The notes beneath the pieces are model-generated. The model was not told the origin of the DNA, did not search any database, and was given only the letters and a program-made list of their open reading frames with translations. Positions 2,192-19,844 of a stretch of 64,000 nt of DNA are shown here, piece after piece. How positions within the stretch are numbered: the stretch's first letter is position 1; each line of letters starts with the position of its first letter. Both the position numbers and the translations under genes were made by a program. This DNA is from a virus. Where the stretch lies: the IMG/VR virus record IMGVR_UViG_3300022188_000006, positions 92,276 to 156,275 of that record; one strand, 5' to 3'.

Positions 2192-2197
2192 CCGCGA

Positions 2198-2599
2198 CTA
2201 CCTCACGCTGCAATACAGAGAAGCTGTCCCTGTAAATGGCGGTGTTCCGGCTCCCCTGCAAGAGACCCTTATTCTGTCCTCGGACTCTCCGAGCTGGACG
2301 GGTATTCTGAACGTGCCGCTCTGAGTGAATCTGAAGATAAACGTCTCCGTAGTACCATCATTGTCGCTAATGGTGTCAGCGAAAAACAGATTGCTGGGCG
2401 AAGTGTCATCAAAAACAGGGCTGTACTCTACGAGAACCTGGAGTTCGTCCTCGTTTCCTTTTGTATAGTCGATGTAGACGAACGCTTGGATAACAGCAGG
2501 TGTCAAAGCTACCCTGGAATTATCCGAAAAGGTTGTCGTCAGGTTCGTGATGTCGAAGGTCTGGTCGTAATTCTCCCCCCAGTTGCTTTTTCCAGCCAT
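2198..2599 (-). CDS. Hypothetical beta-rich protein, probably virion-associated
   Basis: 133 aa, RBS AGGAAG, between the propeller and collagen genes. Confidence 0.7.
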   Translation of the reverse strand: MAGKSNWGENYDQTFDITNLTTTFSDNSRVALTPAVIQAFVYIDYTKGNEDELQVLVEYSPVFDDTSPSNLFFADTISDNDGTTETFIFRFTQSGTFRIPVQLGESEDRIRVSCRGAGTPPFTGTASLYCSVR

Positions 2600-2608
2600 G
2601 TTTGCTTC

Positions 2609-3793
2609 CTACAGTCTGCCGAGACGATAAAGCGCCTCCGTGACATCCGCATACATCCAGGGTATCGAAAAGTATCCACAAGTATAGTTACCCGAACTAT
2701 CACGACCGCTGACTAGCAGCTTGACATCAGCCTCGTCACCGGCACCAGAGAACCTATTTTCGAAGTCGACAACGGCCGACGGAGTATAGCACCTTTGCTC
2801 GCGCCACGTGCCGCTTACGCGACCAAACAGCGGCCCTTGAATCGTCAGCTTTGCCCAATCGAGTCCGTCATCCGAAACAGCCACTCCAATGCCCTCGTGT
2901 AGTGCGCCGGCTCCTCCGGAATAGAACATCATCCACTTTCCGAGAGTAGTCCGGAACACACTACAAGCACCTACGTAGCTGGAATCCCACGGAACAGGAT
3001 TGCCCCAGACGGTACTGCCATGGTCCAGTACCTTGTTATACAAAGAAAAGGTAACACCATCAGGGCTATAACCGAGTCCAATGGACTCAAAAGCACCGGT
3101 GGTGCCATCAAAGAACAGGACGTAGCTGTAGTCGTAGGGATTGCTACCGGAATTGCTAGCACCACTGTTGTAGATCACCGCGCAGGGACCATAGGAGCCG
3201 CGGTTCCAATCCGGATGTGTTCCTGTGACAATCGGAACAGCACCGTTTTGCAGCGGCTGATCATTACTCCAGTTAAGCAGGTCAGACGACTCAGCGGTCC
3301 TGATAGCCTGCACAGAGTATAACTGCGACGTGTCCCAGTAATAGATTCGGAAAGAAGAAGCTCCCGTTTGGACGACCTGGGAATGGTGTGCACCGGACGG
3401 CAAGCCGACAACAGGGTTACCGCCATTCAGGCGTGTCCACGTCGTGAAGTCGTTACTACCGGAAATAATGATGCCTCCACCGGCGTCCACGTCCGAAGAA
3501 TGTAGACACACGTATTTGTAAGCAGTCCCGGCGATGTCGAAGCCATCAGCGAAGTACAGAAGAGTCGGATAATATGCCCTGTCAACCGGAGGGTCGAGCA
3601 CAGGATTCTGATCGTATTCTTCTGGCAAGGCTAGGACCTTCCCGCCACCAGTAACATCCCAAACGCGCTGAAACCCGCCTTGTATGCTGTCACGGAGACG
3701 CTCCATCTCGGCTACCCAGGGCGTCAAACGGCGCTGACCTCGGTTAAGCTGGATCTCCTGTGATCCTCTGTGGTAGAATTGCTGCTGCGTCAT
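2609..3793 (-). CDS. Five-bladed beta-propeller glycoside-hydrolase-like protein (GH32/43/130-type fold)
   Basis: Repeated blade motifs SNDFTTW, SSDLLNW, SPDGVTF, SDDGLDW; WDSSYVG; MFYSG..GIGVAVS. Confidence 0.75.
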   Translation of the reverse strand: MTQQQFYHRGSQEIQLNRGQRRLTPWVAEMERLRDSIQGGFQRVWDVTGGGKVLALPEEYDQNPVLDPPVDRAYYPTLLYFADGFDIAGTAYKYVCLHSSDVDAGGGIIISGSNDFTTWTRLNGGNPVVGLPSGAHHSQVVQTGASSFRIYYWDTSQLYSVQAIRTAESSDLLNWSNDQPLQNGAVPIVTGTHPDWNRGSYGPCAVIYNSGASNSGSNPYDYSYVLFFDGTTGAFESIGLGYSPDGVTFSLYNKVLDHGSTVWGNPVPWDSSYVGACSVFRTTLGKWMMFYSGGAGALHEGIGVAVSDDGLDWAKLTIQGPLFGRVSGTWREQRCYTPSAVVDFENRFSGAGDEADVKLLVSGRDSSGNYTCGYFSIPWMYADVTEALYRLGRL

Positions 3794-4116
3794 CCGACCA
3801 CCCCCTCAAAAATGGCAGCGTAAGCGGCATCCTCTGCGTCCAGCTTCGTCCGCAACCGATCACGCGGAGAGAAAAGGAACTGCTGCCCCCGGGCCACCTC
3901 TGCAAATAGGTATGTGTTATTTACGGACCTGTGCACCTTTTCCAGCACTTCTCCCGCTGGCGCCTTCAGGTCGATTCCATCCATCCAATCCTCGTCAGCG
4001 CGTCCTCGCAGCAATACCGCCTTTCCGTCCTTGACAGCCCATTCCTGGACGATCACACAATCCCGTGTGCGCGGGTTTTGCTCGTAGACGGTCATGACAA
4101 CATTACCAGCGGCCAC
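3790..4116 (-). CDS. Hypothetical protein, putative partner/immunity protein of kinase 4103-4933
   Basis: Overlaps the kinase stop; similar to the C-terminal domain of 15547-17430. Confidence 0.7.
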   Translation of the reverse strand: MAAGNVVMTVYEQNPRTRDCVIVQEWAVKDGKAVLLRGRADEDWMDGIDLKAPAGEVLEKVHRSVNNTYLFAEVARGQQFLFSPRDRLRTKLDAEDAAYAAIFEGVVG

Positions 4117-4933
4117 CTAGTTTCCTCCATGTCCGCATTTTCTTGAGTTCCGAGTGACGCTTGAGAACCCCGTCTAGCTCACGGTCGCCCATTCGTGCCT
4201 CAGTCATTGCTTCCGCAACAGCCTCTAAGTCGGCCTTCTCCAGTATCTGCCGGACATCCTCGGTTATTTCTTTGCCGACGAGTCTCCGCCCAATCACAGA
4301 AAGCATATGCGTCCTGTCATCGCCGGAGGTAAAGGCGTAACCGTTGTCTATAGCGTAAATCCGCTTCTGCGGATCCACGAGCAGATTGCTTGCATGTCGG
4401 TCAATCTGTCCGCAGATAAAGTCGAATGCAGCACAACGATGAAACCAGGGATTTTCTGGATGCTGCCGATAATCGTATCGCCCCGACCGGCGTAACTCAC
4501 TCAACAATGGCAACCTGACCCACGCCATCATAGAACCGGAACCTTCATTGTCTAGCGTTCTGCCGACAACAGGGGGGACCAGGTCGAACCCATATATCCG
4601 GTCCAGCTTATACACCAGAAGCTCTCGCTCCGAAGGGCTCACCTTCGGATCCATTGCCGACAAGTACCGCCCGGTCTCATATCTAAACTCGTGCTTCTTA
4701 AATACAGCCTGTGTACAGTCGATAAAACCCTTGCGGAACGAAGTTTTCAATCTAACTCTCAAGGGACGATGGATCCCCTTGCCGATGGGCTCAGAGTACA
4801 GCTCTTCCGCCTGGGTTAGCACCAGACAACATTTGGCGTGGTCCAGATCGTCCAGACCCTTATCAAGATCAGCCGGCGCGAAGCCGGCCGACCTCCGCAT
4901 ACCGGAGAGTAGCCCACCAGTCAGCGCGTTCAT
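4103..4933 (-). CDS. PI3/PI4-kinase-like (HipA/CtkA-related) kinase
   Basis: AVFK, ERELLVYKLD..VPPVV, FDFICGQIDRHASNLL, IYAIDNGYAF. Confidence 0.85.
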   Translation of the reverse strand: MNALTGGLLSGMRRSAGFAPADLDKGLDDLDHAKCCLVLTQAEELYSEPIGKGIHRPLRVRLKTSFRKGFIDCTQAVFKKHEFRYETGRYLSAMDPKVSPSERELLVYKLDRIYGFDLVPPVVGRTLDNEGSGSMMAWVRLPLLSELRRSGRYDYRQHPENPWFHRCAAFDFICGQIDRHASNLLVDPQKRIYAIDNGYAFTSGDDRTHMLSVIGRRLVGKEITEDVRQILEKADLEAVAEAMTEARMGDRELDGVLKRHSELKKMRTWRKLGGRW

Positions 4934-4969
4934 GCGGTTTCCAGAGATGCCGCTACACAGCAGCCGGCG

Positions 4970-5425
4970 TCATTCGACTTTGAACGTGTGCGTGTGGCCG
5001 TCTGCCTCCTCAACGAGGCCGACCACCTTCACGTCATGCGTGTGGCCGTCGACACTGTCGGTCTTACCGTAAATGACACGCATATCTTTATCCACGAGGG
5101 CTACCACCCTGTGGCAGTGTCGGACCCCGTCTACACCGGCGTCCTGCGTAGTAATCGCCTCGATTTTTCGTTGCCCCGCTTGCTCACGAGCAAACGGCAT
5201 ACTGCCCGTGGTGCATGTGTTGTCCGGCGTGCCCGGACAGTCCACTTCGTTTTCGGCTGCAGCACCTATCCGCAGTCCTTCCCCGTAGGCATTATACCTC
5301 TTGAAGAAGAGAAGCCCAGAGTCGACAGCCACCAGCTCCCAACTAGCCCGACCTAGCTTCTCCAGCGTCGCAGTCAGGTCTCCACATTCAGACAAACTGA
5401 CCGTGTAGTAGTCCCATCCAGGCAT
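4970..5425 (-). CDS. DUF4177-like N-terminus plus His-rich (YmaF-like DGHxH) repeats
   Basis: WDYYTV..LEKLGRASWELVAV; HCHRV, DGHTHDV, DGHTHTF. Confidence 0.6.
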   Translation of the reverse strand: MPGWDYYTVSLSECGDLTATLEKLGRASWELVAVDSGLLFFKRYNAYGEGLRIGAAAENEVDCPGTPDNTCTTGSMPFAREQAGQRKIEAITTQDAGVDGVRHCHRVVALVDKDMRVIYGKTDSVDGHTHDVKVVGLVEEADGHTHTFKVE

Positions 5426-5451
5426 CGCTGCAACCCCCGTTAGATGCTTGA

Positions 5452-5488
5452 GGTCAGGCTGACCGGCCGAAACCGGTCAGCACTGACC
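5452..5488. other. Strong intergenic stem-loop without U-tract
   Basis: GGTCAG-GCTGACCGG-CCGAAA-CCGGTCAGC-A-CTGACC. Confidence 0.5.
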
Positions 5489-5494
5489 GAATCC

Positions 5495-5839
5495 TCAGAC
5501 GCGAGTCGGGCGCGCCCAAGCTCCGAATTGTCCCGGCGCAACACCGACCTGACCACCGCTCCTGGCCACGGAACTGACCACCTTCGGACCGTAGGCGGTC
5601 TCGCCACGTTCCACAGCGATCACCTTGCGAGCGTCCGCGTTGTTGCCCTGGCGAGCCAGATCGGCCATCTTGTCGGCCTCCGCAGGCGGCACACCGGCAG
5701 GGCCAGCATTCGGGATATTCGAATCCACAGGCGGCTGATCGGCGGGCTTTGTCACCATCTTGCTGATTTCCCCGCGCGCTTTACGCGCCTTCGAAACGGC
5801 GCCAGTTCCACCACGAGCAATTGTCGCCTTACCCATCAT
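5495..5839 (-). CDS. Hypothetical protein
   Basis: 114 aa, RBS GGAGG, overlaps the upstream stop. Confidence 0.65.
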   Translation of the reverse strand: MMGKATIARGGTGAVSKARKARGEISKMVTKPADQPPVDSNIPNAGPAGVPPAEADKMADLARQGNNADARKVIAVERGETAYGPKVVSSVARSGGQVGVAPGQFGAWARPTRV

Positions 5840-6180
5840 TCATCCTCCTTGCTTGACTTGACCCCTTCAAACCTGAAACCAGGACAATTTGGGGTCGGAG
5901 AGTCTGGAAATCCTCTACAAATCTGCGGCCTGTCCTCGTAGATGGTACAAACCGCTTCTCCGTTTTCCCACTTCAGAGCGGAACACCTCGCTTCGAAAAT
6001 AACTTCTGCTTCCCGCTCGTTGATCTGTTTGACCGAGACACCTTCGTGCAGGGCCGCCCAGCGTAGAAAATCTTGGGCTGCTGCCATCTCTAAGTCAGTC
6101 GTGGCACCCTCCATTCCAAACTTCAGGACCACCTTCTTGCAACAGTTGCCACACCGCAAGCACTCACCGGTTCTTTCCAT
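5836..6180 (-). CDS. YkgJ-family (CxxCxxCC) cysteine-cluster protein
   Basis: CLRCGNCC ... CSAL ... CTIYEDRPQICRGFP. Confidence 0.85.
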   Translation of the reverse strand: MERTGECLRCGNCCKKVVLKFGMEGATTDLEMAAAQDFLRWAALHEGVSVKQINEREAEVIFEARCSALKWENGEAVCTIYEDRPQICRGFPDSPTPNCPGFRFEGVKSSKEDE

Positions 6181-6941
6181 TACACCACCATCGGAGACAC
6201 ATGCTCGGTCTCCCCGCCGGGCGTGGCCATCTCGGGAAACCGAATGATAATCGAGCTGTCCTTAACAATGTATGGATAAGGGGTCTCCTTGTCCTTCACC
6301 GGGTACGGACCCTTCCCATCGAGTTCAAGCGCGAGGACCCGCTCCTCTTCTGAGAACGGCTCGCTTTTCCGCACCATTACACCGTGCGGATAGCCGTTCT
6401 TTGTCACAAGGCACTTGCATGTGTAGCACTTAGTAACCTTGCCCTGCGGGAAAATGTCGACGACGGCACCATGGACTCCGAGCGGAACCCAGTTTAGCAC
6501 TTGGACTCTATCGCCCACACGTAGGGTCCGCGGTCGCACAAAAGCAGGGGGCTCTTCCGGAACCTCACGCTCAACCCAGAGCTTGTTGGTCTTCCTAGAA
6601 ATGATCTCCCCATCTTTGGCGAGAGCACGAGCCAAAGCTTTTCTGAATTTCTCAGATTCGAGTAGTTCAACCGGATAGCCAGCCTTTTCAAGGGCCGCCG
6701 CCATGATCTGACGCGCCTTCTCTTTCAGCGCGCCTTCGGTCACGGGCTGGTCTTGCGCCGACCCCTTTTGCTCCGACGCCTGATCGTCCTGCTGGTCTTC
6801 GTCCTGTTCCTGCACGTCCTTCAGGATCGGGAACAACGGTTTGTTGAGCTTCGCAGAAAACGTCAGACCCTTACGAATCTCGGCGCCGTGCTCAATCTGA
6901 CTGCTGGAAGTCCATGTTTCTCGGTCGTGGATCTCATTCAT
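6180..6941 (-). CDS. Hypothetical protein with SH3/KOW-like segment
   Basis: 253 aa, RBS AGGAG; LRVGDRVQV...GAVVDI. Confidence 0.65.
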   Translation of the reverse strand: MNEIHDRETWTSSSQIEHGAEIRKGLTFSAKLNKPLFPILKDVQEQDEDQQDDQASEQKGSAQDQPVTEGALKEKARQIMAAALEKAGYPVELLESEKFRKALARALAKDGEIISRKTNKLWVEREVPEEPPAFVRPRTLRVGDRVQVLNWVPLGVHGAVVDIFPQGKVTKCYTCKCLVTKNGYPHGVMVRKSEPFSEEERVLALELDGKGPYPVKDKETPYPYIVKDSSIIIRFPEMATPGGETEHVSPMVV

Positions 6942-7828: not shown

Positions 7829-9712
7829 CTACACAACGATGACGTTCTGAACGTACTTCGCCGAATCAAAAGGGTTCACAACGAAATCAGGAACGTCTAC
7901 AGCAACCTCGTTCAGACCATCTTCATCGAACTTCCTAGCCATCGCGCGCCGTTGTTTCTCTGCCTTTTTTGCTTCGAGCAACCGCGTTTGCACCTCAGCA
8001 GCGGACGCCTTCTCGATGTCTGGACCAAATTCGTCCTCGAAACGGAAATTCATCATGAGACACATGAGCGCGTCTGGTCCGTGATCCTTCTTCTTTAGGA
8101 TGGCACCGGTAGTCTCGGACCTACGGTAAGCCTTCAGTTGCTCGATTAGTATTTCCAGTGCCTTGTTTATGCGTATGCGCCTGAACACGAAGTACTTCGA
8201 AACATTTTCAATGCCTATCTTCTTCCATGTCCCGAAATTTATCGGCCGCACATCAAAACCAGCGCTAGAGAGTTCCGCGTTGTTGAATGGGTGAGACGAG
8301 TCTGCCAATACGGGGAACTCGCCAAACAGTGTCTTCCAATCGCGCAACTTTGTAGCTACATCGGAGACCAGCACGTGGTCTGTAAACTCAGCCTCATGGA
8401 TATAAACACATTCCCTCGTGCGTATCCCCAGGATCATCACCATGCTTCCCTGAGACTGAATACCCCAGTCGATACCAACCGCCGCCCTATCCACCGCACT
8501 GTCGATAAGGATAGGATCAGTAAGAGAAGCCTCAATCAGCTCAGGTGCATAGACGCAAGACGAATACGACGGGCGTTCGCAGGCAAACTCGGTCTCAAAG
8601 ACGGTCGTCCCGGCATTCATCTCCTTAGCTTCTGACACCATTTTGAAGGTGGCCCAGCCGTCACTGTGGCGCGCCTTTCCGTAACACCCCTTAAATACCT
8701 CTGTCTTCTTACCATCGGGACCATCCACCAAAACCCTGTCCGTCAAATAGCACCTCTTGCAGTACTCAAGAGCTTCCGGATCATCCTCCGTCGCCTCTTC
8801 GAGACCCCTCGTGCATCGTTCCATAGTATCAAACACGTTCCAGTTGTACCGCTGAAATCCCTTCTCCCTGTAACCATCCCAATACTCTTGGAACAGGCCG
8901 TGCGGTATATGGAACGTAGAAAACAAGCACACAATTGAATCCGGCTCTGACAGCGCGCCCTGCAAAGCAGCCCGCATCGCCTTTTCGACTCTGCGGTCCT
9001 CCTGGCAAACCTCGTCCACAAAAATTGTCCCAAAGTGCTTGCCGCGTCCTTGTTTCTCCGTCGCCGGCACACACTTCAAGAGAACACCTGTCACCAACCG
9101 GGTGACATCAGAAAGCGGATCGCCGAGCAGGAGACCGTCACGCAACCCGGGCACAGCATCCCAGAACATCTTCACGTAGTCATAAACAACTTTCGACTGT
9201 TCCCCCGAACCTGCCACATCCAGTATTTCCCGCTTCCAGTAGATGAGGAGCAACCAGATCAGCACAGCAGCCGAAAGAGATCCACCGCCACCACGCGGCT
9301 TCCAAGTGATCGTCTTTCGAACTCGACCAAAAAACACGTCGCCGACCCATTTGATGATCGGCGGAATGAGCTTCACATAGGTCTTTTTGCCGTCCTTAAT
9401 TACGTATAAGGTTTCCCCGACAAATGATGCAAGCCTTTCGTGTTGCCGCTTTATGTATGCTTCTTCACTTTCTTCGTATCCCAAGGGCTCGCGAACCCAG
9501 CCGTCTGTCACGTGCCAGCCTTTTTCGGCAGCCGTAACGGCGCTCATCTCTGGATCATAGACACCCTGCTTGAAGCCACGGGGAAACAGCAGATCAGGCA
9601 AACCGTAAGCACCCGGATATCCCCTTGCGAGACGATCCCTGATCTCTCGCTCAAGCAGCAGAAGCTGTCGTAGCTTCTCCTCTTTGCTTTGGCTCGCCTT
9701 ACGTTTTTTCAC
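7829..9712 (-). CDS. terL: Terminase large subunit
   Basis: Walker A-position WKPRGGGGS, RGKH, Walker B IFVDEV, STF coupling motif, RNase H-like VGIDWG and DHGPDA. Confidence 0.85.
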   Translation of the reverse strand: MKKRKASQSKEEKLRQLLLLEREIRDRLARGYPGAYGLPDLLFPRGFKQGVYDPEMSAVTAAEKGWHVTDGWVREPLGYEESEEAYIKRQHERLASFVGETLYVIKDGKKTYVKLIPPIIKWVGDVFFGRVRKTITWKPRGGGGSLSAAVLIWLLLIYWKREILDVAGSGEQSKVVYDYVKMFWDAVPGLRDGLLLGDPLSDVTRLVTGVLLKCVPATEKQGRGKHFGTIFVDEVCQEDRRVEKAMRAALQGALSEPDSIVCLFSTFHIPHGLFQEYWDGYREKGFQRYNWNVFDTMERCTRGLEEATEDDPEALEYCKRCYLTDRVLVDGPDGKKTEVFKGCYGKARHSDGWATFKMVSEAKEMNAGTTVFETEFACERPSYSSCVYAPELIEASLTDPILIDSAVDRAAVGIDWGIQSQGSMVMILGIRTRECVYIHEAEFTDHVLVSDVATKLRDWKTLFGEFPVLADSSHPFNNAELSSAGFDVRPINFGTWKKIGIENVSKYFVFRRIRINKALEILIEQLKAYRRSETTGAILKKKDHGPDALMCLMMNFRFEDEFGPDIEKASAAEVQTRLLEAKKAEKQRRAMARKFDEDGLNEVAVDVPDFVVNPFDSAKYVQNVIVV

Positions 9713-11375: not shown

Positions 11376-11520
11376 CCCTGATTTCTTTCGCTTCCTTCTT
11401 AGAAACAACACCGGTGCTCTCGGCACCGCTGATTACAGCGCCACGAATCTTTGCGGCATTCCCAGAACGTAGGTGCAGCGACGCCAGATCTCGAAGAACC
11501 TCAGACACAATCTTGTTCAT
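11350..11520 (-). CDS. Small hypothetical protein (56 aa, not in the ORF track)
   Basis: ATGA overlap with the 11517 stop; MNKIVSEVLRDLASLHLRSG...KASGKR*. Confidence 0.55.
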   Translation of the reverse strand: MNKIVSEVLRDLASLHLRSGNAAKIRGAVISGAESTGVVSKKEAKEIRDGKASGKR

Positions 11521-12137
11521 GCCTTCGCCTTCAGCATTAAGTCGCGTCTCTTAGCCAAGGATACCGAAATGTCGCCAAAAATCAACGAAACGCCGAGCCA
11601 GAATGTCTTCTCAGCGTCAGTAATCGTGACCGACGGACTGGCTCTCAGACCCCTACGGCCATACTTCACCGCAAACTTTTCCGCCTTGCAAACACGCTTG
11701 TTCAGATTTTTTGTCTCGGCACGCATCTCTCTCCAGACACTAGGCTTGAATCGTTTGCAGTTGGGATCCCGCTCGATCCTATCAAGCAGAGCTTTTACCT
11801 CTGCGATCAGCACATCGCGTTCCTTGGCAAAATGTGCACTCTTGAAACCTCCGGCACCGCCCCGGCTCAACTCCGTCAACTTCTGCAGTCGCCGTTGCAT
11901 CACGGCAAGTCTTCGCTTGGCAGCAGCTTTTACATGGTCGCCCCTCGGGGATTCCTCCTCTCCGCCTTTCTTGGAAGCTGTGTCTTTCTTGGGTCCTCGA
12001 TAGGGAACAATGTGTCCATTCGGAAGCTTAATGACCCGCTGTCCACCTTGCCGTGTCCAGATTTCTCCCACGCGCCGGCGGACCCATTTCTCCACCGCAA
12101 TCTCTGCCAAATCTACAGCCCAGCTATACTGTCTCAC
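11517..12137 (-). CDS. Basic hypothetical protein with VGE-x-W hairpin motif
   Basis: GTGA overlap; AVEK..RRVGEIWTRQGGQRVIKLPNG. Confidence 0.7.
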   Translation of the reverse strand: MRQYSWAVDLAEIAVEKWVRRRVGEIWTRQGGQRVIKLPNGHIVPYRGPKKDTASKKGGEEESPRGDHVKAAAKRRLAVMQRRLQKLTELSRGGAGGFKSAHFAKERDVLIAEVKALLDRIERDPNCKRFKPSVWREMRAETKNLNKRVCKAEKFAVKYGRRGLRASPSVTITDAEKTFWLGVSLIFGDISVSLAKRRDLMLKAKA

Positions 12138-12679
12138 GACAGGATCCTCACCGTAACCATGAATGCCATCGGGCGCTTCCCGCGGCGCCTGAATGCTCGC
12201 CCCTGAATCACATACTTGTTACCTTGGCTAAATACTCCTTCGGCTTCCTCCTTGAAACCGTCTGACAAAAGCGCATCTCGCAGATCTGCGATTCTGCGAC
12301 CAACATCCTCCTCTGCATCGCACACGACCGTGATATGGTAGGTATCCCCTCTATGTGCAGAGGGGGAGAGCCGACAGCCGCCCCTCCAGCCGCCCATCTT
12401 CCGCGCGATTCTTGAGGCGAACCGTCTGATCCCGGCATCGCTTTCCTTCACCACACGCTCAATAGCAGCATTAAAGGCGAATAGTTCTTCGGTGGCCAAA
12501 TCCTTCCCATAGTCATCGCAGTCTTCGCACTTTTTCACGACGCCCCAAGCCATTTTGTGGCACAAAGCGTCGTCTTTATGTCGCTCGTAGCAGCTGTTGA
12601 ATACCTCCACCCACTGCCGCTGCTTCTTCTCGCTAAGGCCTCTTAGCTTGCTAGGTGGATTGTTCACGTCGTAAGGCAT
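12134..12679 (-). CDS. ChaB-domain protein with C-terminal extension
   Basis: MPYDVNNPP..L..KQRQWVEVFNSCY...CHKMAWGVVK matches the ChaB pattern; GGAGG before ATG 12679. Confidence 0.75.
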   Translation of the reverse strand: MPYDVNNPPSKLRGLSEKKQRQWVEVFNSCYERHKDDALCHKMAWGVVKKCEDCDDYGKDLATEELFAFNAAIERVVKESDAGIRRFASRIARKMGGWRGGCRLSPSAHRGDTYHITVVCDAEEDVGRRIADLRDALLSDGFKEEAEGVFSQGNKYVIQGRAFRRRGKRPMAFMVTVRILS

Positions 12680-13404
12680 GTTCCAGCCTCCCATTTCTTG
12701 AGGGTATCCTGACAAAACGCTGACAACCCCTCTAGTGCTGATGCAATACCGTTCTCCCGCGAAATAGCGGCAACACCGTGTCCGCGAGCACGCAATTCTC
12801 CCTCCGCAGGCTTCCGCCCGATGACATTGCCCTTCGCATCCATAAGGTAGGTGACACCGTGTCTCGTGACCTGTGCAGCCACACGCGGCAACTTCGTCCG
12901 CGTAGGCTTTTTCTTGGGATGCTCGGGCTTTCTCTCCGGTTTCTTTTCTGGTTTCTTCTCTGACTTTGCACTCGGAGCAGGCAGATTAGCTCGCCGTTCG
13001 CGCCGCTCGAACTCCTCTTTTAGTCTCTCTGGAACTTTGATCCCGTACTTTCCGAAATCTCTCGGATATATTGGCTGCCAAGACCCACCGATCTTCATAT
13101 GTGGCAATAGCCTCGCCCTCGGACCCGACCCGGTCCGATACCACTCGATTCGGCCCTCACTCGCGGGCTTCGGACGCTGGGTAGGACGGGCGCGGCCTTT
13201 CGGTTCCTCGTACACATATATCGGCTTCTTGCCGGGACGCTCGATCTTCCTCTTATATTTGTGTGGTCTCAGCCTCTGGGCAAATCCCATCACCCGGCTC
13301 ACGAAACCGGCCTTCAGTAGTTCCTCGCCGACGCCGCGCGACTTCGATACGTCGAAGACGAAGTCACACAGGGCCAGCAACACATCGAATCGCGCGTCGT
13401 TCAT
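12664..13404 (-). CDS. Basic hypothetical protein with leader and HKY hairpin motif
   Basis: LCDFVFDVSKS..ELLKA..HKYKRKIERPGKKPIYVY; ATGA overlap. Confidence 0.7.
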   Translation of the reverse strand: MNDARFDVLLALCDFVFDVSKSRGVGEELLKAGFVSRVMGFAQRLRPHKYKRKIERPGKKPIYVYEEPKGRARPTQRPKPASEGRIEWYRTGSGPRARLLPHMKIGGSWQPIYPRDFGKYGIKVPERLKEEFERRERRANLPAPSAKSEKKPEKKPERKPEHPKKKPTRTKLPRVAAQVTRHGVTYLMDAKGNVIGRKPAEGELRARGHGVAAISRENGIASALEGLSAFCQDTLKKWEAGTCLTT

Positions 13405-14243
13405 TTTCTTCTGCCGATAATCTGCGCGACACGCCGGACATCGCCCGGCGTATCAATCGAACCTGTCTCTTCAACCAGCTTCGCCAACTTCTTGAGGAAG
13501 TCTAGGTAATGATACCTTTCGAAGAGTTTGTAGCGCACGTTCTCCGGAAGAAGGTTCGGCGAGGGGTACTTTTTCAGTCCTCTCCGCGCTAGCTCTAGCT
13601 CACGCTTGAACGCTTCAAGCCTGTCGCGGTGGATGTCAGACATCTCTGCCGCCATTTCCTGCACAGCGGCATCGAGGTCCTTGATCCGCCTACGCAACTT
13701 CGCCGCAACCTCAGCACTATTCGATACCGAGAGAACATCCGCCAGTCGCTCAATATCGATCAGGCTGCGCCACGCCTCAGCCTTATCAGCATCAATTTGC
13801 CGAACATCACGTTTCCACTGATCATAAACATCCAGCAGACTCACGCCGATATCGGGACTTGTCTTCAGCCACTTCTTTCGCATCAAGTCGTAAACAGCGT
13901 CGTACTTGTCGAGGTCGGCACTTTCTAGGACGAAAAAGTTGATTGGATGCTGCGTCCCGGGAGCAAGCTTACCGCTAAGCCGTGTTGCATTCTCGACAAG
14001 TGCCAGCAAGGTCTCTGGATCGACGTCCACCACAATGGACACATCAATGTCCGACTCAGGATTATATCTGAGTCCGGTAATACTCCCGACCAGGTAAGCA
14101 GCGCGAGGCTTCACACCAAGCAGGAGTTTGCGTGCCTGCTGTCGAATCGCCCCCGCGATCTCCGGTCTGAGTACGTACCTGTCCCCGCGCTTGTACCAAA
14201 CAAGCGGGTCCAGTCCCGGCATCTTTTCATCTAATATGCTCAC
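13401..14243 (-). CDS. Pol-beta superfamily nucleotidyltransferase
   Basis: YLVGS-ITGLRYNPE-SDIDV; helical C-terminal domain. Confidence 0.8.
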   Translation of the reverse strand: MSILDEKMPGLDPLVWYKRGDRYVLRPEIAGAIRQQARKLLLGVKPRAAYLVGSITGLRYNPESDIDVSIVVDVDPETLLALVENATRLSGKLAPGTQHPINFFVLESADLDKYDAVYDLMRKKWLKTSPDIGVSLLDVYDQWKRDVRQIDADKAEAWRSLIDIERLADVLSVSNSAEVAAKLRRRIKDLDAAVQEMAAEMSDIHRDRLEAFKRELELARRGLKKYPSPNLLPENVRYKLFERYHYLDFLKKLAKLVEETGSIDTPGDVRRVAQIIGRRK

Positions 14244-14524
14244 GTCTGGGCCTTCGCTTTCTTTTCTTCTTCGAGGACTGACTCCATGACAAGGAGCGCA
14301 GAATAGTAATCCGGATACTCAGCCAAGTGATCCAACGCAATCTGAGTGGCCACGTCTCGCCTGTCCGTGTGCTCCATCTCGATCTCGATACCGATGGCCA
14401 GCTGAACCGGGTCGACATCTTGCTCGGTAACGCCCTTCTTTGCCGCCATCCCGTTTAGCAGTGGCCTAGTGTCTCCTCTGCTCGACGCCCTCTGTTCTAC
14501 CGCCTTTTGGATTTTGTCAAACAT
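14240..14524 (-). CDS. DUF5661-like protein
   Basis: GIEIEMEHT....A..IALDHLAEYPDYYS. Confidence 0.75.
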   Translation of the reverse strand: MFDKIQKAVEQRASSRGDTRPLLNGMAAKKGVTEQDVDPVQLAIGIEIEMEHTDRRDVATQIALDHLAEYPDYYSALLVMESVLEEEKKAKAQT

Positions 14525-14536
14525 TTTGCTTTCCTG

Positions 14537-15064
14537 TCAGTTGCGCCCAAGCGGATGCTGTGCCATGTCCAGCAGATCCGGACTGTCCTCTCCTACCAAG
14601 TCGTCCAACAATCGTTTCTTCAGTGCTGTTAGTTCTTCCAAGGACGCACGCTCAAGATCTACTCCCTCTATGATGTGCCTGGTCGTCGTCTGTGTTACAG
14701 CCTTGGGAACAACGCCAGCCTCCATAAGAAGACTGGTTCGACGATGCAGGGCCGAAAGGGCCTTGTCCAAAAACGCAGCTCGCTGATTGGCACTCGAAGC
14801 CAGCGAATACTCCGACATGGCGCACCGGTAAATCTCATCGTATTTTTGACAGGCTTCGGCGACCTCGGCAGGTGGCTCAGCGTTCGATGTCTTCTCTGCT
14901 TCCTCTGCCTTCCACTGCTTGATCCAGTTTTCCACGGTCTGCTCTGTGCAACCTACAGCCTCGGCTATGTCGCTCTTGCGTGCACCCCTGATGTAGAGAC
15001 GGATCACGCGATCCTTTAGCCGCTCCCTTTCCTGCTTTGACATAGGGCCACGTCGTCTAGCCAT
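14537..15064 (-). CDS. HTH protein, probable terminase small subunit
   Basis: N-terminal HTH (ARKSDIAEAVGCTEQTVENW), helical core, DLERASLEEL tail; upstream of terL. Confidence 0.6.
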   Translation of the reverse strand: MARRRGPMSKQERERLKDRVIRLYIRGARKSDIAEAVGCTEQTVENWIKQWKAEEAEKTSNAEPPAEVAEACQKYDEIYRCAMSEYSLASSANQRAAFLDKALSALHRRTSLLMEAGVVPKAVTQTTTRHIIEGVDLERASLEELTALKKRLLDDLVGEDSPDLLDMAQHPLGRN

Positions 15065-15068
15065 ACCG

Positions 15069-15572
15069 CTATCCTGCCATTTGCAAGGTGTCGCCTACCT
15101 GCCGAATCCGGCCGGACTTAACAAGTACCTCCACCACCTCAGGAGCAACAGGATTTCTTTTACCATCAACACGCACAAGTACCGGTTGCGTCCCCATGGC
15201 CCTGTGCACCATTGTTATCCTGGCGTCATTTTGCAGAAAGAACATGAGATGGTTCGGATTCCTTATGATTCTTCCATCTGGATAGATCGGGGATCTGGCT
15301 GTCGATAGAGTCTTTGTCCTCGGCTCAAACAGCGTTTCCTTTGACTCAGGTTCTTTTCCTGCTACAGGTTCGCTTTTGCTTCCAAGAACACCGAGAACCT
15401 TGTCCAGCGCCTGCTCCACTGCACGCTCAGCCACTGCTATGTTTAGAGCAGGCGCAATTCTAGTCTTTTGCTCCGCAGGTCCTTTGTCCGCAATGACCGC
15501 GGTCCCGGCAGCACGAAGATTTTCTCCGTCCCAGACAAAATTCGTCTCATTCTGAACCCGGCGCATTGGCAT
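15069..15572 (-). CDS. Hypothetical protein
   Basis: Fills the gap between kinase and HTH genes; start uncertain. Confidence 0.55.
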   Translation of the reverse strand: MPMRRVQNETNFVWDGENLRAAGTAVIADKGPAEQKTRIAPALNIAVAERAVEQALDKVLGVLGSKSEPVAGKEPESKETLFEPRTKTLSTARSPIYPDGRIIRNPNHLMFFLQNDARITMVHRAMGTQPVLVRVDGKRNPVAPEVVEVLVKSGRIRQVGDTLQMAG

Positions 15573-17430
15573 TCGTCCGAGGAACAATTCTGACCATCGA
15601 ACCACAAAAACTCAAGGGCAGATCCTGCACAAACTTCTCTGGGGTGTTCGTCGTAATTCGCTCGCCCAGGGGTCCCAGGTAACCGCCCATTACGTACTCC
15701 ACAAGCGGATTTTCCTCGCCGCTGAGCACCACAACCTTGTCACCCTTTAGGGCGATCTCCCCGACAAGCTTTTGGTCTTTTCCAGCACCGGTGTAGACCT
15801 GCATAATCTCAGCGTTCTCAGACTTCAATATGAAGTCCTCTAGTTGGCGCAGAGCCATCGCAACAGTAGCCATCTCTGCCGCGTGTGGTTTCGGTTTAGG
15901 TGGCTTAGGTGTCTGGAGAGACCTTGCTCCCATGGCAAGCTCTACCATGTTCAACGTGCGAGGTAACCTGCCTTTCTCCTTTATTCGCCTAAGACGCGCA
16001 ATGACACCGTTGGCTTCCTTACCTAGGCCCCATTTTTCCAAGGTTTTCTTTAGTTGTCCCTCGTCTACTTTTTGCAGCTGCGAGACGATCCGCTTGTCTA
16101 TCTTCCCGCCGTTGTACTCATGGGAAAGCCAGTGAGGCACAGACGTAAAACCGTGAAAATCGCCTCGTTCATCACTGATCGGGAAGTTGAACCCATTGTC
16201 GATCGCGAATGCTTGCTTTCGGTCAGCACTGACCAAGTAATTCCCGAAGTGCCTGTCTGTGGCCCCTGTAAGGTAGTCAAAGACGGCCATTTTTTCCACG
16301 GAAAACCTGAAATCAGGATCGTTTTCGAAGTGCATCTGCGTCTTCGCCCGTGAAAAGTCACTCCCGCTCATAGCCCCTTCGACAAAATGCTGCCTAGAAG
16401 CAGAAGCCTCCGGATTCAGTGCAGCCTCTTGCAGTTCCTTCAAGGCTTCTTTTGAGAGCTTATTTTCCTTGTAAGCAGCCTGGAGTTCTGGGTGCATCAG
16501 AACCTGCTTGACAACCCTTGCTCTATCCTCGGCCGCTACCTGCGTCTTTGTCTTTACTGTTGGCGGGACAATGCCGAAACCCAGCAACCTGTCCACCTCA
16601 AAAGCCGCCGCTTCGCGCGCCCCCACCGACACTTTTTCGTTGAGAATACCACGCCGCATGAAACTAATCGGTGGACCAAGTCCATCCGGCTTTGTTACGC
16701 TCTTGCTGCCATCAGGTGCCTGATCGAAGTAAACCAGTGTTCGGCTGTCAATGCCTGCTTGCTCCCGTTTCACCGGGTCAGAGCGCAGAGCTTTTTCTAC
16801 TTGCTCTAGGTGTCCTTCCCAAGGAGCTGACGAGAGTGCACCCTTCTTGTAAACAAAATCTCCCCATCCCGTCTCTTCGTCGTGCTTGGCCGGACCGGCC
16901 TCCCTCTCATCCAGCTTGTCGAGTTTTTCTGCTATCTCCCGCAATATGCCGTAAGCTTTCTGGATCTGCTCGGCATCCCCTTTCTTGAATCCATCACGCA
17001 AAAGCTGAGCAAACTCCTTCGCCCGTGTGCTAATCTGTTCCAGGACCTTCTTCTGATGCTCAGTAGTAGCCTTGGTTTTCATTTCGCGGAACCGCTCACC
17101 GAACTTCTTCATTAGTTCGGCAGACTTCCGCTTCAGGTCCGGTGTTGCCTGCCTCGACGATCTCAACTGTCGGACAACGCTCTCGACCTCCTGGGCCAGC
17201 TTCGATGTCTTCGGGGACGGCCCTGCCACGGTCTCAGTCTTTGCGCCCTTGGGCGGCGTGTCCGAATACTCATAGGTACCATCGGGCAATTTACGCCGCC
17301 AGAGATGGCGCTTCCTGCCCGTGCGTCCCTCTGGGTCTGGGGGCTCCCAATCACCGACCTTCGCTTTCAATAGCAGGCTAAACTGCGTCAGCGATTCAAC
17401 GATGGCTTCCCTGGAAAGATCCGCGATCAC
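15547..17430 (-). CDS. Multidomain protein: leader, hairpin, helical region, PI3/PI4-kinase-like domain, C-terminal partner-like domain
   Basis: SVTKP, AREAAAFEVDRLLGFGIVPPTV, FDYLTGATDRHFGNYL, AFAIDNGFNFP. Confidence 0.85.
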   Translation of the reverse strand: MIADLSREAIVESLTQFSLLLKAKVGDWEPPDPEGRTGRKRHLWRRKLPDGTYEYSDTPPKGAKTETVAGPSPKTSKLAQEVESVVRQLRSSRQATPDLKRKSAELMKKFGERFREMKTKATTEHQKKVLEQISTRAKEFAQLLRDGFKKGDAEQIQKAYGILREIAEKLDKLDEREAGPAKHDEETGWGDFVYKKGALSSAPWEGHLEQVEKALRSDPVKREQAGIDSRTLVYFDQAPDGSKSVTKPDGLGPPISFMRRGILNEKVSVGAREAAAFEVDRLLGFGIVPPTVKTKTQVAAEDRARVVKQVLMHPELQAAYKENKLSKEALKELQEAALNPEASASRQHFVEGAMSGSDFSRAKTQMHFENDPDFRFSVEKMAVFDYLTGATDRHFGNYLVSADRKQAFAIDNGFNFPISDERGDFHGFTSVPHWLSHEYNGGKIDKRIVSQLQKVDEGQLKKTLEKWGLGKEANGVIARLRRIKEKGRLPRTLNMVELAMGARSLQTPKPPKPKPHAAEMATVAMALRQLEDFILKSENAEIMQVYTGAGKDQKLVGEIALKGDKVVVLSGEENPLVEYVMGGYLGPLGERITTNTPEKFVQDLPLSFCGSMVRIVPRTNANAPGSE

Positions 17431-17645
17431 TAGGCGCTAACCTCCCTAACAGCCCCGTCTTCAACAGGAACGACAGGGAAACCAAGAAACTCCTCCGGCA
17501 TAATAAGAGGTTCGCGCTCAAGAATCGGAACGAGTACCGTCCGGCCGTCCGCGCCTTTCCCTACACCAACAGACCGGGCTACCTTTACCTCTCTGTTTAT
17601 GCGCTGGAGCAGTTTCTGTGCGGCAACACGTTCTTCGTTGGTCAT
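17430..17645 (-). CDS. Small protein resembling protease pro-region-like domains
   Basis: SVGVG...VLV...MPEEFLGFPVVPVEDGAV. Confidence 0.55.
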   Translation of the reverse strand: MTNEERVAAQKLLQRINREVKVARSVGVGKGADGRTVLVPILEREPLIMPEEFLGFPVVPVEDGAVREVSA

Positions 17646-17646
17646 T

Positions 17647-18840
17647 TTACGGAATCACTTTCATCAATTGCTTCTCGAAATCAACCAGAGTCTTTTGAAC
17701 TGCTTTCTCGATCAACCCCCTCGGATCCTCGAAAGATTTCCCAGCAGACAAACGGGCGTGCAAACCAGCTGTCATCCGCTCGATGTTAAACTCTTCGCGA
17801 AGGTCGTCTTCGTCATCCTTGAACATAATGATTTTCAGTAGATTTTCGAATTGTTCAGGCGAAAGCTTTTCCATCTGCCGCTTTACCCTATTGAACTCCC
17901 GCATGTTCCTGTAATTTTGGGGATCCATACCATCCAGGAAATCGCGCTTCAACTGCTCTTTTGTCCTCCCCCTTCCACGCCTGCCCAGACTAAGTTTGAA
18001 GTACCCCATTTCGCTCATTAGGCTGTTCAGCAGCTCTTGTTCCTTTTCTGTCAATTTCACCCCAGCAGCCTTCAGAGCTTCTAAGTATCTCCGCTTTGAT
18101 TCTTTTGTCATGTGATCCGCCAAACCAGTGGCCTGTCGCAGCTGCATCACAAGCTTCGTGCCTCGTTTCCGCCCAGTCGGCTCCCAATCCTGCTTTTCCT
18201 TCGCGCCCTTCTTACCTACCTTCTTCATGTACTCGTCGTAAGCCTTCGAGCCACGTCGCACACGAACGATGGTGCCGTCCTTCCTCTTCGTCCATAGAGC
18301 CATGCCGCGTCCCTCAAAGCCAGACTTGGCCCACCAGAATTCCCCGACCTCGCGACGCTTCCGCGGCCCCGTCCGCCCGGCCTGGCCTGTTCCCTTCCCG
18401 CTTGTACCGAGCTTCAAGGCTCTTTTGCGCTGTTGCTTCGTAGTATAGCGTGGCTTCTTCGACTTGACTTTTTTGGGCTTTGCCTTTGCTTTTGCCTGCG
18501 CCCGCTTTTGCTGCATCAGCTTTGCCTTCGTCTTCCCGGACAGCTTGCGTTCTCTCTTTCCGGGTATCTTCCGCGGACGACCCTTGATGCCAACATCGCC
18601 GCCTCGCATGCTAGGCCCAACCGGCGCCTTCCCAAGCTTGATGAGTTCCTCTTCCTCATTCGCAATGAACTCATCTCCTACCCCGGCCATCTGGGCGACC
18701 GACGGGAGCGAGAAAGCGGAAGCCAAATCCCCAGCTTCTTTGCCAAGGACAATGTCCACAGCTCGCTTCTCAGGCAAGTCCTTTTCCTTTCGCCGACGCA
18801 CTGCCTGCTCCAGAATCTCCAACGTTTCGAAAAGCGCCAT
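17647..18840 (-). CDS. Highly basic Lys/Arg-rich protein with VGE-x-W hairpin
   Basis: Start moved to ATG 18840 (AAGGAG); REVGEFWW...LWTKRKDGTIV. Confidence 0.75.
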   Translation of the reverse strand: MALFETLEILEQAVRRRKEKDLPEKRAVDIVLGKEAGDLASAFSLPSVAQMAGVGDEFIANEEEELIKLGKAPVGPSMRGGDVGIKGRPRKIPGKRERKLSGKTKAKLMQQKRAQAKAKAKPKKVKSKKPRYTTKQQRKRALKLGTSGKGTGQAGRTGPRKRREVGEFWWAKSGFEGRGMALWTKRKDGTIVRVRRGSKAYDEYMKKVGKKGAKEKQDWEPTGRKRGTKLVMQLRQATGLADHMTKESKRRYLEALKAAGVKLTEKEQELLNSLMSEMGYFKLSLGRRGRGRTKEQLKRDFLDGMDPQNYRNMREFNRVKRQMEKLSPEQFENLLKIIMFKDDEDDLREEFNIERMTAGLHARLSAGKSFEDPRGLIEKAVQKTLVDFEKQLMKVIP

Positions 18841-18851
18841 CTGCCGCTCCT

Positions 18852-19064
18852 TTACGAACAAAGAGAATGAATGATCTCCTCCGTTCTTATCCTGCGTATC
18901 ACAATCTGCTTTCCAGCCCAGAGACTGGGTAAAGCTTCTCCGACAGGCTCCAACGCACCCGTGACCCACACGTACCACTTATTTGGGCGTTCTTCAACGA
19001 ATACTACGCCCGTCGTGGCACTGAGGGCCAGTTTATACAGATCCGTAGCGACCTTACTGTTCAT
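18852..19064 (-). CDS. Small hypothetical protein, weakly similar to 17430-17645
   Basis: YVWV...LPSLWAGKQIVI; overlaps the SOD stop. Confidence 0.5.
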   Translation of the reverse strand: MNSKVATDLYKLALSATTGVVFVEERPNKWYVWVTGALEPVGEALPSLWAGKQIVIRRIRTEEIIHSLCS

Positions 19065-19773
19065 GCCAGTTCCTGTCAGCAAAGCCCCAGTTGACGAGCT
19101 GTCTTACAGCCTTATTCAGGTACGACCGCCTATCGCTCTGATAGTCGAGATAGTAGGCATGCTCCCACAGGTCTATCGCGAGCAGCGGAGTCATACTCTC
19201 ATCCAGCAGTGGTCCCGCGGCATTTTCCCCGTAAACGACTTCTGGCTCTTCGTTTCTCTTGACCAGCCACAACCAACCGGAGCCAAAGAGTTTATCCCCC
19301 ATGTCTACCATGACACGCCGGCATTCTTCGGTCGAACCATATTTCCTTCGCACCGCAGACAGCAGATCACCTGTTGGCGCTGTGTCCTGACCAGGAGGGG
19401 ATATAGACATCCAATAGAATGCGTGATTCCAGGCTTCCCCCGCACGTCTGGCAAGCACCTTGTTCCCATCTGCTCCAGAAGAAATGAGACTTCTCAGATC
19501 TTCTTGCTCGAATCGAGTCCCGCGAACCATTTCCCTCACAAGATCCACGTACCTCTTGTGTATGCGAACGTGCGCCTCGATTGTATCCCTTGAGAGAGCG
19601 GGCGACAGCTCACCCATCTTGAAAGGTAATGCTGGCATCACTAGGCGGCCAGCAATGTCTGTAGCCGGCTGTTCGTTACCTTTTTGCTGCTTCACCTTTG
19701 TCACAAAGGCTGCATTGCTCCCCACAGATTTCAGGAGAGCCCCAAAACCTCCTAGACCAATGCCTGTCTGCAT
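19054..19773 (-). CDS. sodB: Fe/Mn superoxide dismutase family protein with N-terminal leader
   Basis: LPF...LSP..S..TIEAH, WNHAFYW, FGSGWLWL, DLWEHAYY; GGAGG before ATG 19773. Confidence 0.85.
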   Translation of the reverse strand: MQTGIGLGGFGALLKSVGSNAAFVTKVKQQKGNEQPATDIAGRLVMPALPFKMGELSPALSRDTIEAHVRIHKRYVDLVREMVRGTRFEQEDLRSLISSGADGNKVLARRAGEAWNHAFYWMSISPPGQDTAPTGDLLSAVRRKYGSTEECRRVMVDMGDKLFGSGWLWLVKRNEEPEVVYGENAAGPLLDESMTPLLAIDLWEHAYYLDYQSDRRSYLNKAVRQLVNWGFADRNWHEQ

Positions 19774-19844
19774 GCTCTCCTCCCATACACCGCCGGCAGA
19801 CACCGCCTAGCAGTATCAACCGAAGCAAACGCACTGTTATTTTA

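Follow-up and report, generated by a model that had tools for sequence, protein, structure and literature searches.

Kinase 2, the subject of this analysis, is encoded in a 64,000-nucleotide stretch of viral DNA (hereafter the window; bases 92276-156275 of the 156,275-bp virus contig IMGVR_UViG_3300022188_000006 from IMG/VR) and combines, in a single chain, a kinase domain of the PI3/PI4-kinase superfamily with a small C-terminal domain of ~85 aa, referred to below as the partner domain, homologs of which are encoded as separate proteins next to other kinases of the same family. On balance, we favor the interpretation that kinase 2 is a kinase-antidote module in cis, with the partner domain inhibiting the kinase to which it is fused. 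Inhibition in cis had been proposed in a preliminary description of the sequence, and this part of the proposal stands as a reasonable reading because the partner domain is separable, as seen in split relatives, is predicted to dock over the catalytic residues, and bears a weak resemblance to HipS, the protein that neutralizes the kinase HipT. The coordinates of all features are collected in Table 1.

The in-frame fusion of a partner-like domain, also noted in the preliminary description, was borne out. An identical 627-aa kinase 2 is encoded by a Logan/ENA contig of 162,399 bp, which was assembled independently of the 156,275-bp JGI contig, and the fusion is kept in P0003 (36% identity; present in two sequencing runs), in P0004/L008 (29%), and in the fragment P0007/L006/L009, so that an assembly error is excluded as its origin. 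The positions that had been given for the ILKS tetrapeptide (residues 534-537) and for the ATG codon of M520 (15873) are likewise correct, and the Pro/Lys stretch said to precede the last domain is present at residues 509-516.

An AlphaFold model of the whole protein, built from 8 sequences (mean predicted local distance difference test score [pLDDT], 65), contains, from the N terminus to the C terminus, a helix (residues 7-22), a disordered Pro-rich spacer, a β-hairpin (45-54), a four-helix region (77-177), a disordered segment (177-229), the kinase core (230-500; pLDDT 80-93), a disordered Pro/Lys stretch (502-523), a helix (517-537), and an α/β domain (540-617). The best fold and profile matches to the catalytic domain are type II phosphatidylinositol 4-kinases (PI4K), the Fam20/Golgi casein kinases, and the actinobacterial SCO1664 family (TIGR03843). 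In particular, the domain matches PF00454 at residues 308-438 (E 5e-11; 43.4 bits, the cut-off being 27.1), its best Foldseek matches are human PI4K II alpha and beta (E 1e-7 to 8e-6), followed by Fam20A/C, and the TIGR03843 match stays under the NCBIfam cut-off (39.8 against 172.4). The catalytic loop D-R-H-x-x-N, the metal-binding Asp motif I-D-N-G, and a Gln in the hinge strand are common to kinase 2 and these three groups, although the identity amounts to just 16-21% and kinase 2 is without lipid-binding or secretory features. The eight aligned kinases all share K247 and E273 (the β3 Lys and the helix-C Glu, respectively), D392, H394, N397, and D411; given this invariance of the catalytic residues, kinase 2 looks active and is probably a functional enzyme, with proteins rather than lipids being its most likely substrates.

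The partner domain belongs to a family of small proteins associated with kinases. The genome encodes six kinases of this family, namely, kinase 2, the short kinase 1, and an array of four, and a partner, stand-alone or fused, accompanies a kinase lacking such a domain at its N terminus in five cases in this genome and in at least five in its relatives. The suggestion that the last domain of kinase 2 resembles the small genes beside the other kinases proved correct, the likeness being well above chance: a hidden Markov model (HMM) derived from five kinase-2-type domains ranked the array partners second and third and the kinase-1 partner sixth among the 189 proteins of the genome, and an hhalign comparison of the C-terminal domains with the stand-alone partners yielded E 1.3e-4 over 77 columns. 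Querying exhaustively with residues 510-627 recovered the fused fragment P0007 and a stand-alone 82-aa partner, P0005 (E 2.5e-7), whose gene lies 15 nt after a gene for a 583-aa PF00454 kinase and which has upstream the same 70-aa gene as in the window; judged by sequence and gene order, P0005 and the 583-aa kinase are a natural split form of kinase 2. In the split metagenomic relatives L011, L012, and L013, the kinase stop codon is followed by a strong ribosome-binding site and then the partner ATG, and L049 is likewise split. A 1213-aa protein (P0006) that also matched the C-terminal domain has a repetitive, surface-protein-like sequence, and the match was judged spurious; a word-indexed search with the A2 partner alignment returned nothing beyond the partners of this phage.

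The partner domain is also combined with an enzyme other than a kinase. In three related phages, a kinase-1-like kinase gene is overlapped at its end by a gene for a HAD hydrolase fused to a partner domain, which the partner HMM detected in two of the fusions (E 1e-9 in L044 and 4e-8 in L045) and which was identified by eye in the third (L046); Hydrolase_3 attains its cut-off in two of the three. Such a fusion would be a likely phosphatase tethered to the kinase. It fits a role of the partner domain in opposing the kinase. Because it is found alone, fused to a kinase, or fused to a likely phosphatase, the partner can be described as a mobile kinase-associated module. As a separate observation, genes of the HAD/NIF type are also present near the kinase locus in L004 (136-735; Pfam NIF) and L011 (361-939; D-x-D-x-T by eye).

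The AlphaFold2 model of the partner domain, obtained from 9 sequences (pLDDT 89), consists of three strands (positions 5-11, 18-26, and 29-34 of the domain), two helices (39-45 and 61-71), and a final strand (77-81). The order of elements agrees with the published layout of HipS, in which N-terminal strands are followed by a helical sub-domain that forms the interface and by a last strand (PMC10627512). When the model was compared with 48,161 chains using VIA-align, four of the top five matches were HipS (7vkb_B and 7ab3_B; Z 4.1, with an rmsd of 3.8 over 69 aligned residues, and 3.9) and N-subdomain 1 of HipA, the latter twice (Z 3.3 and 3.1), and clusters of HipA/Couple_hipA recurred in three ESM Atlas searches with different models (TM 0.43-0.53); a Foldseek search of the C-terminal domain against the PDB returned nothing at E up to 0.001. 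Taken singly, such scores lie within the range of noise, and the likeness is credible because the matches recur, the domain occurs in the context of a kinase, and the elements follow in the same order. The predicted fold of the partner domain thus resembles HipS and HipA N-subdomain 1 weakly but repeatedly.

The arrangement of the two domains was predicted by modeling the kinase core (residues 185-512) together with the partner domain in three runs, alongside three controls. The complex scored 0.91 in the three runs versus 0.19 for the best control; the 0.91 mark was attained by 58 of 80 solved complexes and by 2 of 110 mismatched pairs, counts that apply here approximately, as our own alignments went into the prediction. 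At least 90% of the contacts are common to the runs, with a pLDDT of at least 83 for the partner. On the kinase side, the modeled interface includes K247, the hinge, D392-N397, I410-D411, and the tail formed by residues 495-503; on the partner side, it includes the second helix together with residues 573-589, with Y579 involved in the closest contacts. The column of Y579 holds Trp in all four stand-alone partners of the genome and was equated, in an alignment made by eye, with Trp65 of HipS, the residue that is inserted beside the active site of HipT to neutralize it (PMC10627512). The models support binding of the partner domain over the catalytic cleft of the kinase.

In the mechanism that we propose, the partner domain would dock onto the catalytic cleft through its helical face and the loop 573-589, as in the model, and would keep the kinase off inside the phage-producing cell, the flexible 42-aa linker allowing it to reach the cleft in cis. 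Kinase activity would then need the release of the partner domain, for which proteolysis of the linker might be one route. The N-terminal helix, spacer, and hairpin shared by five paralogs could serve as a targeting or tethering module, possibly directed to the prohead.

Several observations weigh against inhibition in cis and against the likeness to HipS on which it draws. The fold scores of the partner (Z ~4, TM ~0.5) fall where chance arrangements are common; the Couple_hipA profile (PF13657) gave no match at E up to 5 with the C-terminal domain or two partners; the A2 profile retrieved from the PDB sequences designed repeats and unrelated chains only, and no HipS; and the probability that hhalign assigns to the relationship of the C-terminal domains with the stand-alone partners is just 54%. 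On the kinase side, there was no match to HipA_C (PF07804) at E up to 1 in Pfam or up to 0.1 in NCBIfam, and the 50 Foldseek matches listed for the kinase core include no HipA chain, which does not exclude that fold. The Y579 column is occupied by Tyr in kinase 2 and by Val or Ala in its orthologs, not by Trp. Furthermore, the complex score expresses model confidence, to which remembered HipS-HipT structures might contribute. Finally, active HipA constitutively contains the equivalent domain (PMC10627512), and docking therefore does not prove inhibition.

The HipA precedent is also the starting point of an alternative, according to which the C-terminal domain acts constitutively, as a subunit with a structural, activating, or substrate-selecting role, so that the fused and split forms are equivalent holoenzymes and nothing is removed. 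Repeated fusion and fission without a visible change in the catalytic residues fits this possibility, as does the fact that the kinase-2-type domains are without the Trp that makes HipS inhibitory. It is harder to reconcile with the complex model, in which the partner covers K247, D392, H394, N397, and D411 such that substrate access would be blocked, with the presence of the same domain on a HAD hydrolase in related phages, which suggests antagonism rather than activation, and with the retention of Trp at the HipS Trp65-like position in the stand-alone partners. We regard a constitutive subunit as unlikely, albeit deserving of consideration, whereas inhibition in cis appears, with moderate confidence, to be the likeliest mechanism for kinase 2.

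How the kinase and the partner might be parted depends on the segment between them. Because the split kinases stop, in the alignment, at the equivalent of residues 487-494, residues 495-536 exist only in the fused forms. This linker (pLDDT below 50 at residues 502-523) is poorly conserved save for the helix ending in hydrophobic-(L/N)-K; among the fused proteins of full length (P0001, P0003, and P0004), I534 and K536 do not vary, and the fragment P0007 has L-L-K at this place. The possibility that split kinases end exactly at ILK, which two kinases terminating in F-E-x-L-K and a stop codon had brought up, was rejected given that their aligned ends match residues 487-494 and not 531-536. A cut after K536 would, by alignment, free a domain equal to the stand-alone partners. 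The description of the segment ahead of the partner domain as the same type of motif as the N-terminal leader, however, was not confirmed: the internal L-x-x-F-x-L-K is two residues shorter, with one residue rather than three between Phe and Leu-Lys, and the three fused relatives lack the aromatic residue.

Separation could also occur at the level of translation, if the partner domain were also, or only, made from an internal start at M520, M525, or M543. Three in-frame ATG codons (15873, 15858, and 15804) do lie within or just past the linker, and a Shine-Dalgarno match is absent at 18 of the 66 called genes, so that starts of this kind occur. Nevertheless, this alternative, likewise raised in the preliminary description, fares poorly and is very improbable: none of the three codons is preceded by an anti-Shine-Dalgarno match of at least 4 nt, as against matches at 48 of the 66 called starts and GGAGGT at the start of the gene itself, and the stop codon and strong AAGGAGAA found ahead of the partner ATG in the split relatives are absent from kinase 2.

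At the other end of the protein, all five long kinases, including all four of the array, carry the leader L-x-x-F-x-x-x-(L/W)-K-(A/Q), behind which a Pro/Lys spacer leads to a basic hairpin, and the same layout is present in P0003, P0004, L010, L011, and a 1032-aa protein of L007. The leader motif was observed 8 times versus 0.78 expected, a count in which five of the eight are paralogs and for which the pattern was picked post hoc. A similar motif is carried by the N-terminal extension of the superoxide dismutase (SOD) encoded near kinase 2. The ~20 closest SODs, which are metagenomic (P0014-P0034), start with L-x-L-x-x-W-x-x-x-L-K and an acidic/Ser-rich spacer of 15-40 aa, an extension missing from ordinary SODs. 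A profile built on the SOD leaders, run against all 189 N termini of the genome, ranked kinase 2 third, at an E value of 3.4, with no array kinase in the top 14. From these similarities, it is plausible that the leader is a portable tag common to the kinases and the SODs, and, by analogy with T4, it is possibly a capsid-targeting signal. The hairpin, too, has counterparts: by eye, three basic proteins encoded between the ribonucleotide reductase (RNR) and terminase genes (11517-12137, 12664-13404, and 17647-18978, all on the minus strand) contain a similar motif, with basic residues, W, and then G-x-x-I/V-x-L/V-x-x-G-x-x-x-P/Y-Y, which could be a small module common to several basic proteins.

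The phage encodes a candidate for a protease that would act on such tags. The gene after the portal gene codes for an N-terminal HK97-family prohead protease domain followed by a very Glu-rich, scaffold-like region, and the capsid proteins (L014-L043; 19 distinct relatives) have a variable N-terminal peptide of 5-25 aa, then an invariant hydrophobic-hydrophobic-E-K followed by S/T-I-x-S/T-x-D. This peptide looks like a short propeptide that is cut after Lys; a comparison of the capsid protein with the PDB sequences gave no match. In HK97, the mature capsid protein likewise begins behind a Lys, and its first residues, S-L/I-x-S/T-D, are similar. For an HK97-like staphylococcal phage, P1 is reported to be K/R (PMC8569155), and, together with the capsid E-K site, this precedent makes cutting after Lys credible for this phage, with nothing in it specific to kinase 2.

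The preliminary description had gone on to suggest that the maturation protease separates the kinase from its inhibitor so that it is armed only in the virion. In its full form, this idea makes kinase 2 a zymogen-like polyprotein that is taken into the prohead by the leader, cut after K22 and K536, and active only after ejection. In addition to the protease domain, the capsid site, and the staphylococcal precedent, it is in line with the invariance of K22 and K536 among the fused orthologs, with the location of ILK exactly at the N-terminal edge of the partner, within the fused-only linker, and with the recurrence of a leader plus spacer on ~20 phage SODs, which recalls the T4 capsid-targeting sequences (CTS) removed by gp21 (PMC9026906); moreover, the stand-alone partners have no leader, so that cutting would be needed by the fused form only. 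Set against this are the commonness of three-residue motifs ending in Lys, the variation of P1' (A, Q, S, R, or E) together with Glu rather than Leu at P2 of the capsid site, the finding that the leader is not duplicated in the internal segment, and the nonsignificant retrieval of the kinase leaders by the SOD-leader profile. A tightly bound 10-kDa domain would, in addition, remain in the capsid after cleavage. We consider the zymogen scheme rather unlikely as a whole, although cleavage between Lys and Ser of ILKS by the HK97-type prohead protease is possible, the support for it being circumstantial. A broader form of the idea holds that the lineage loads enzymes by means of a Lys-specific HK97-type protease and a tag of ~20 aa, L-x-x-F/W-x-x-x-L-K, with kinase 2 packaged as a zymogen, freed from its HipS-like inhibitor by that protease, and injected together with the DNA as an armed toxin-type kinase; the cargo would comprise up to five tagged kinases (kinase 1 being untagged) and the SOD. 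This is quite doubtful at present.

Among the known systems, the closest to the module favored here, a kinase with a cis-acting antidote, is HipBST of E. coli O127 and Legionella, in which HipT, a kinase without HipA N-subdomain 1, is paired with HipS, an α/β protein of ~100 aa that uses its helical part to bind HipT beside the active site, where it inserts an aromatic residue (PMC10627512); the same is proposed here on the basis of the complex model. As in HipS, which is its best, though weak, structural match, the modeled partner has the same order of elements, and the stand-alone partners retain Trp in the corresponding loop (W-x-x-x-G-I/V in all three array partners). Unlike in HipBST, however, the kinase is type II PI4K/Fam20-like and not of the HipA_C type, the partner has no sequence similarity to HipS, its gene follows rather than precedes that of the kinase, no HipB-like repressor was seen beside kinase 2, and the modules are phage-borne and present in six copies. 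The gene order of the split forms, kinase then partner, is that of hipJS (Gerdes et al. 2021, PMC8262856), and the single-chain HipL, with a core kinase followed by a HipS-like domain (PMC8262856), parallels the fused kinase 2, which is devoid of the additional HIRAN domain of HipL. The hipJS, hipIN, and HipL modules are chromosomal in bacteria and have been proposed to act against phages (PMC8262856), whereas the module described here resides in a phage; it is further set apart by a different kinase clade, the copy number, the leader, and the phosphatase-linked variant.

Two phage systems offer parallels for the N-terminal part and for the kinase. In T4, the CTS is a short N-terminal peptide found on unrelated cargo (internal proteins and Alt) and removed by the prohead protease (PMC9026906), and the leader here is likewise short and N-terminal; the ejected proteins of SPN3US and phiKZ are grouped with the T4 CTS cargo for this comparison. 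The T4 protease, however, cuts after Glu, and the function of the CTS was shown experimentally, whereas the present protease is of the HK97 type and the tag is deduced from conservation within the kinases and the SODs. Phage polyvalent proteins (Iyer et al. 2017, PMC5512222) contain divergent kinases in which the final N-lobe strand has a conserved Gln and, like kinase 2, are phage-borne. These kinases accompany zincin-like peptidase and MuF domains and are predicted to be delivered and processed (PMC5512222); kinase 2 has neither domain, and no HipS-like partner was described for the polyvalent kinases (PMC5512222). A relative with a polyvalent-protein-like layout is the 1032-aa protein of a distant phage (L007:4477-7575, plus strand), which comprises the leader, an H-E-x-x-H (zincin-like) region, the hairpin, and the kinase, and is followed by a gene that appears, by eye, to encode a MuF/SPP1 gp7-type head morphogenesis protein.

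The logic of a kinase combined with a HipS-type antidote, known from bacterial toxin-antitoxin systems, would thus have a phage counterpart that uses another kinase clade. Further differences are the six copies, the split, fused, and phosphatase-linked forms, and an N-terminal tag that possibly directs cargo to the capsid. The natural series of fused and split forms fixes the boundary of the partner domain exactly, and kinase 2 offers a way of testing by what means a phage is protected, during its production, from a kinase that could poison translation. If the tag is a capsid-loading signal, it would represent a second, independent system of the T4 CTS type, usable for packaging foreign proteins.

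Table 1. Coordinates of kinase 2, its parts, and related genes (window positions unless a contig or the genome is named; aa, amino acids; ORF, open reading frame)
Feature	Position	Strand	Basis or remarks
Kinase 2 (P0001)	15547..17430	-	ORF list and translation; single 627-aa gene, GTG start
Shine-Dalgarno sequence of kinase 2, AGGGAGG	17441..17447	-	Sequence read and Shine-Dalgarno scan
N-terminal leader helix, residues 7-22, ending L-L-K, then A	17365..17412	-	Helix at low pLDDT; L14, F17, and K22 invariant in orthologs
Basic β-hairpin, residues 41-56, after Pro-rich spacer	17263..17310	-	Strands 45-48 and 51-54 modeled; motif kept in all long paralogs
Helical bundle, residues 77-177	16900..17202	-	Four long helices, pLDDT 65-77; no family match
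Kinase domain, residues 230-494, PI3/PI4-kinase superfamily, type II PI4K/Fam20-like	15949..16743	-	PF00454, Foldseek, invariant residues
Linker, residues 495-536: disordered Pro/Lys stretch and helix ending I-L-K; fused forms only	15823..15948	-	pLDDT below 50 at 502-523
ILKS, proposed cleavage site at N-terminal edge of partner domain	15820..15831	-	Coordinates checked; aligned to the M-(L)-K with which stand-alone partners begin
HipS-like partner domain, residues 537-620	15571..15822	-	AlphaFold2 pLDDT 89; homologous stand-alone partners; weak HipS/HipA-N matches; complex model
Kinase 1, 276-aa paralog without N-terminal region	4103..4933	-	BLASTP E 4.5e-10 to kinase 2; PF00454 and TIGR03843 matches
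Separate partner gene of 108 aa that overlaps the kinase 1 gene at its end	3790..4116	-	ORF; 6th of 189 by C-terminal-domain HMM; most divergent member
Array of four paralogous kinases (487-519 aa) and three interleaved partner genes (91-119 aa), L002	genome 26747-33777		Outside the window
HAD-partner fusion gene	L044:869-1513	-	
HAD-partner fusion gene	L045:1956-2528	+	
HAD-partner fusion gene	L046:1919-2524	+	
Fe/Mn superoxide dismutase gene	19054-19803	-	
SOD N-terminal extension with similar leader motif	19639..19803	-	55 residues; Pfam SOD domain begins at residue 56
Large terminase	7829-9712		
Protease-scaffold fusion gene (625 aa), after portal	L001:12028-13905 = genome 85027-86904	-	TIGR01543 E 2e-5, below cut-off; weak S78_2
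Capsid protein	L001:10614-11975	-	

The window belongs to a phage genome in which kinase 2 is embedded among phage genes. Nearly all genes of the window are on the minus strand; replication genes (DNA polymerase, primase, helicases, and RNR) occupy the 20-50 kb region, and the genes for the portal, the protease-scaffold protein, and the HK97-fold capsid protein are located just past the low end of the window. Kinase 2 itself is flanked by the RNR and SOD genes and by a helix-turn-helix (small-terminase-like) gene, and a 22-kb relative (L004) has the same order, namely, RNR, glutaredoxin, SOD, genes for 76, 416, and 70 aa, kinase, genes for 202 and 170 aa, and DUF5661. Most of 30 IMG/VR contigs, the longest of 269 kb, encode a capsid protein with 66-91% identity to that of this phage (59% in one partial match), and neither kinase 2 nor the large terminase has a match among the GenBank phages; the phage is a member of a lineage of large uncultivated phages. 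No relative was found among 185,579 species genomes with the two patterns used, and PHROGs, PADLOC, and an Atlas feature search yielded nothing useful on the kinases or partners. The related large contigs G001-G005 encode kinases of the family, a clear ortholog of kinase 2 being absent there.

Two further observations concern neighboring genes. In L004, the RNR large subunit (1751 aa; 1592-6847) and an AAA protein (939 aa; 13882-16701) carry intein and LAGLIDADG insertions, which the RNR of the window (680 aa) lacks. Downstream of kinase 1 and its partner, the window encodes, on the minus strand, a 394-aa protein without a family match (2609-3793) and the product of a 760-aa gene (2-2191), the repetitive DNA of which gives rise to long spurious ORFs on the plus strand; both products are likely to be structural or fiber proteins.

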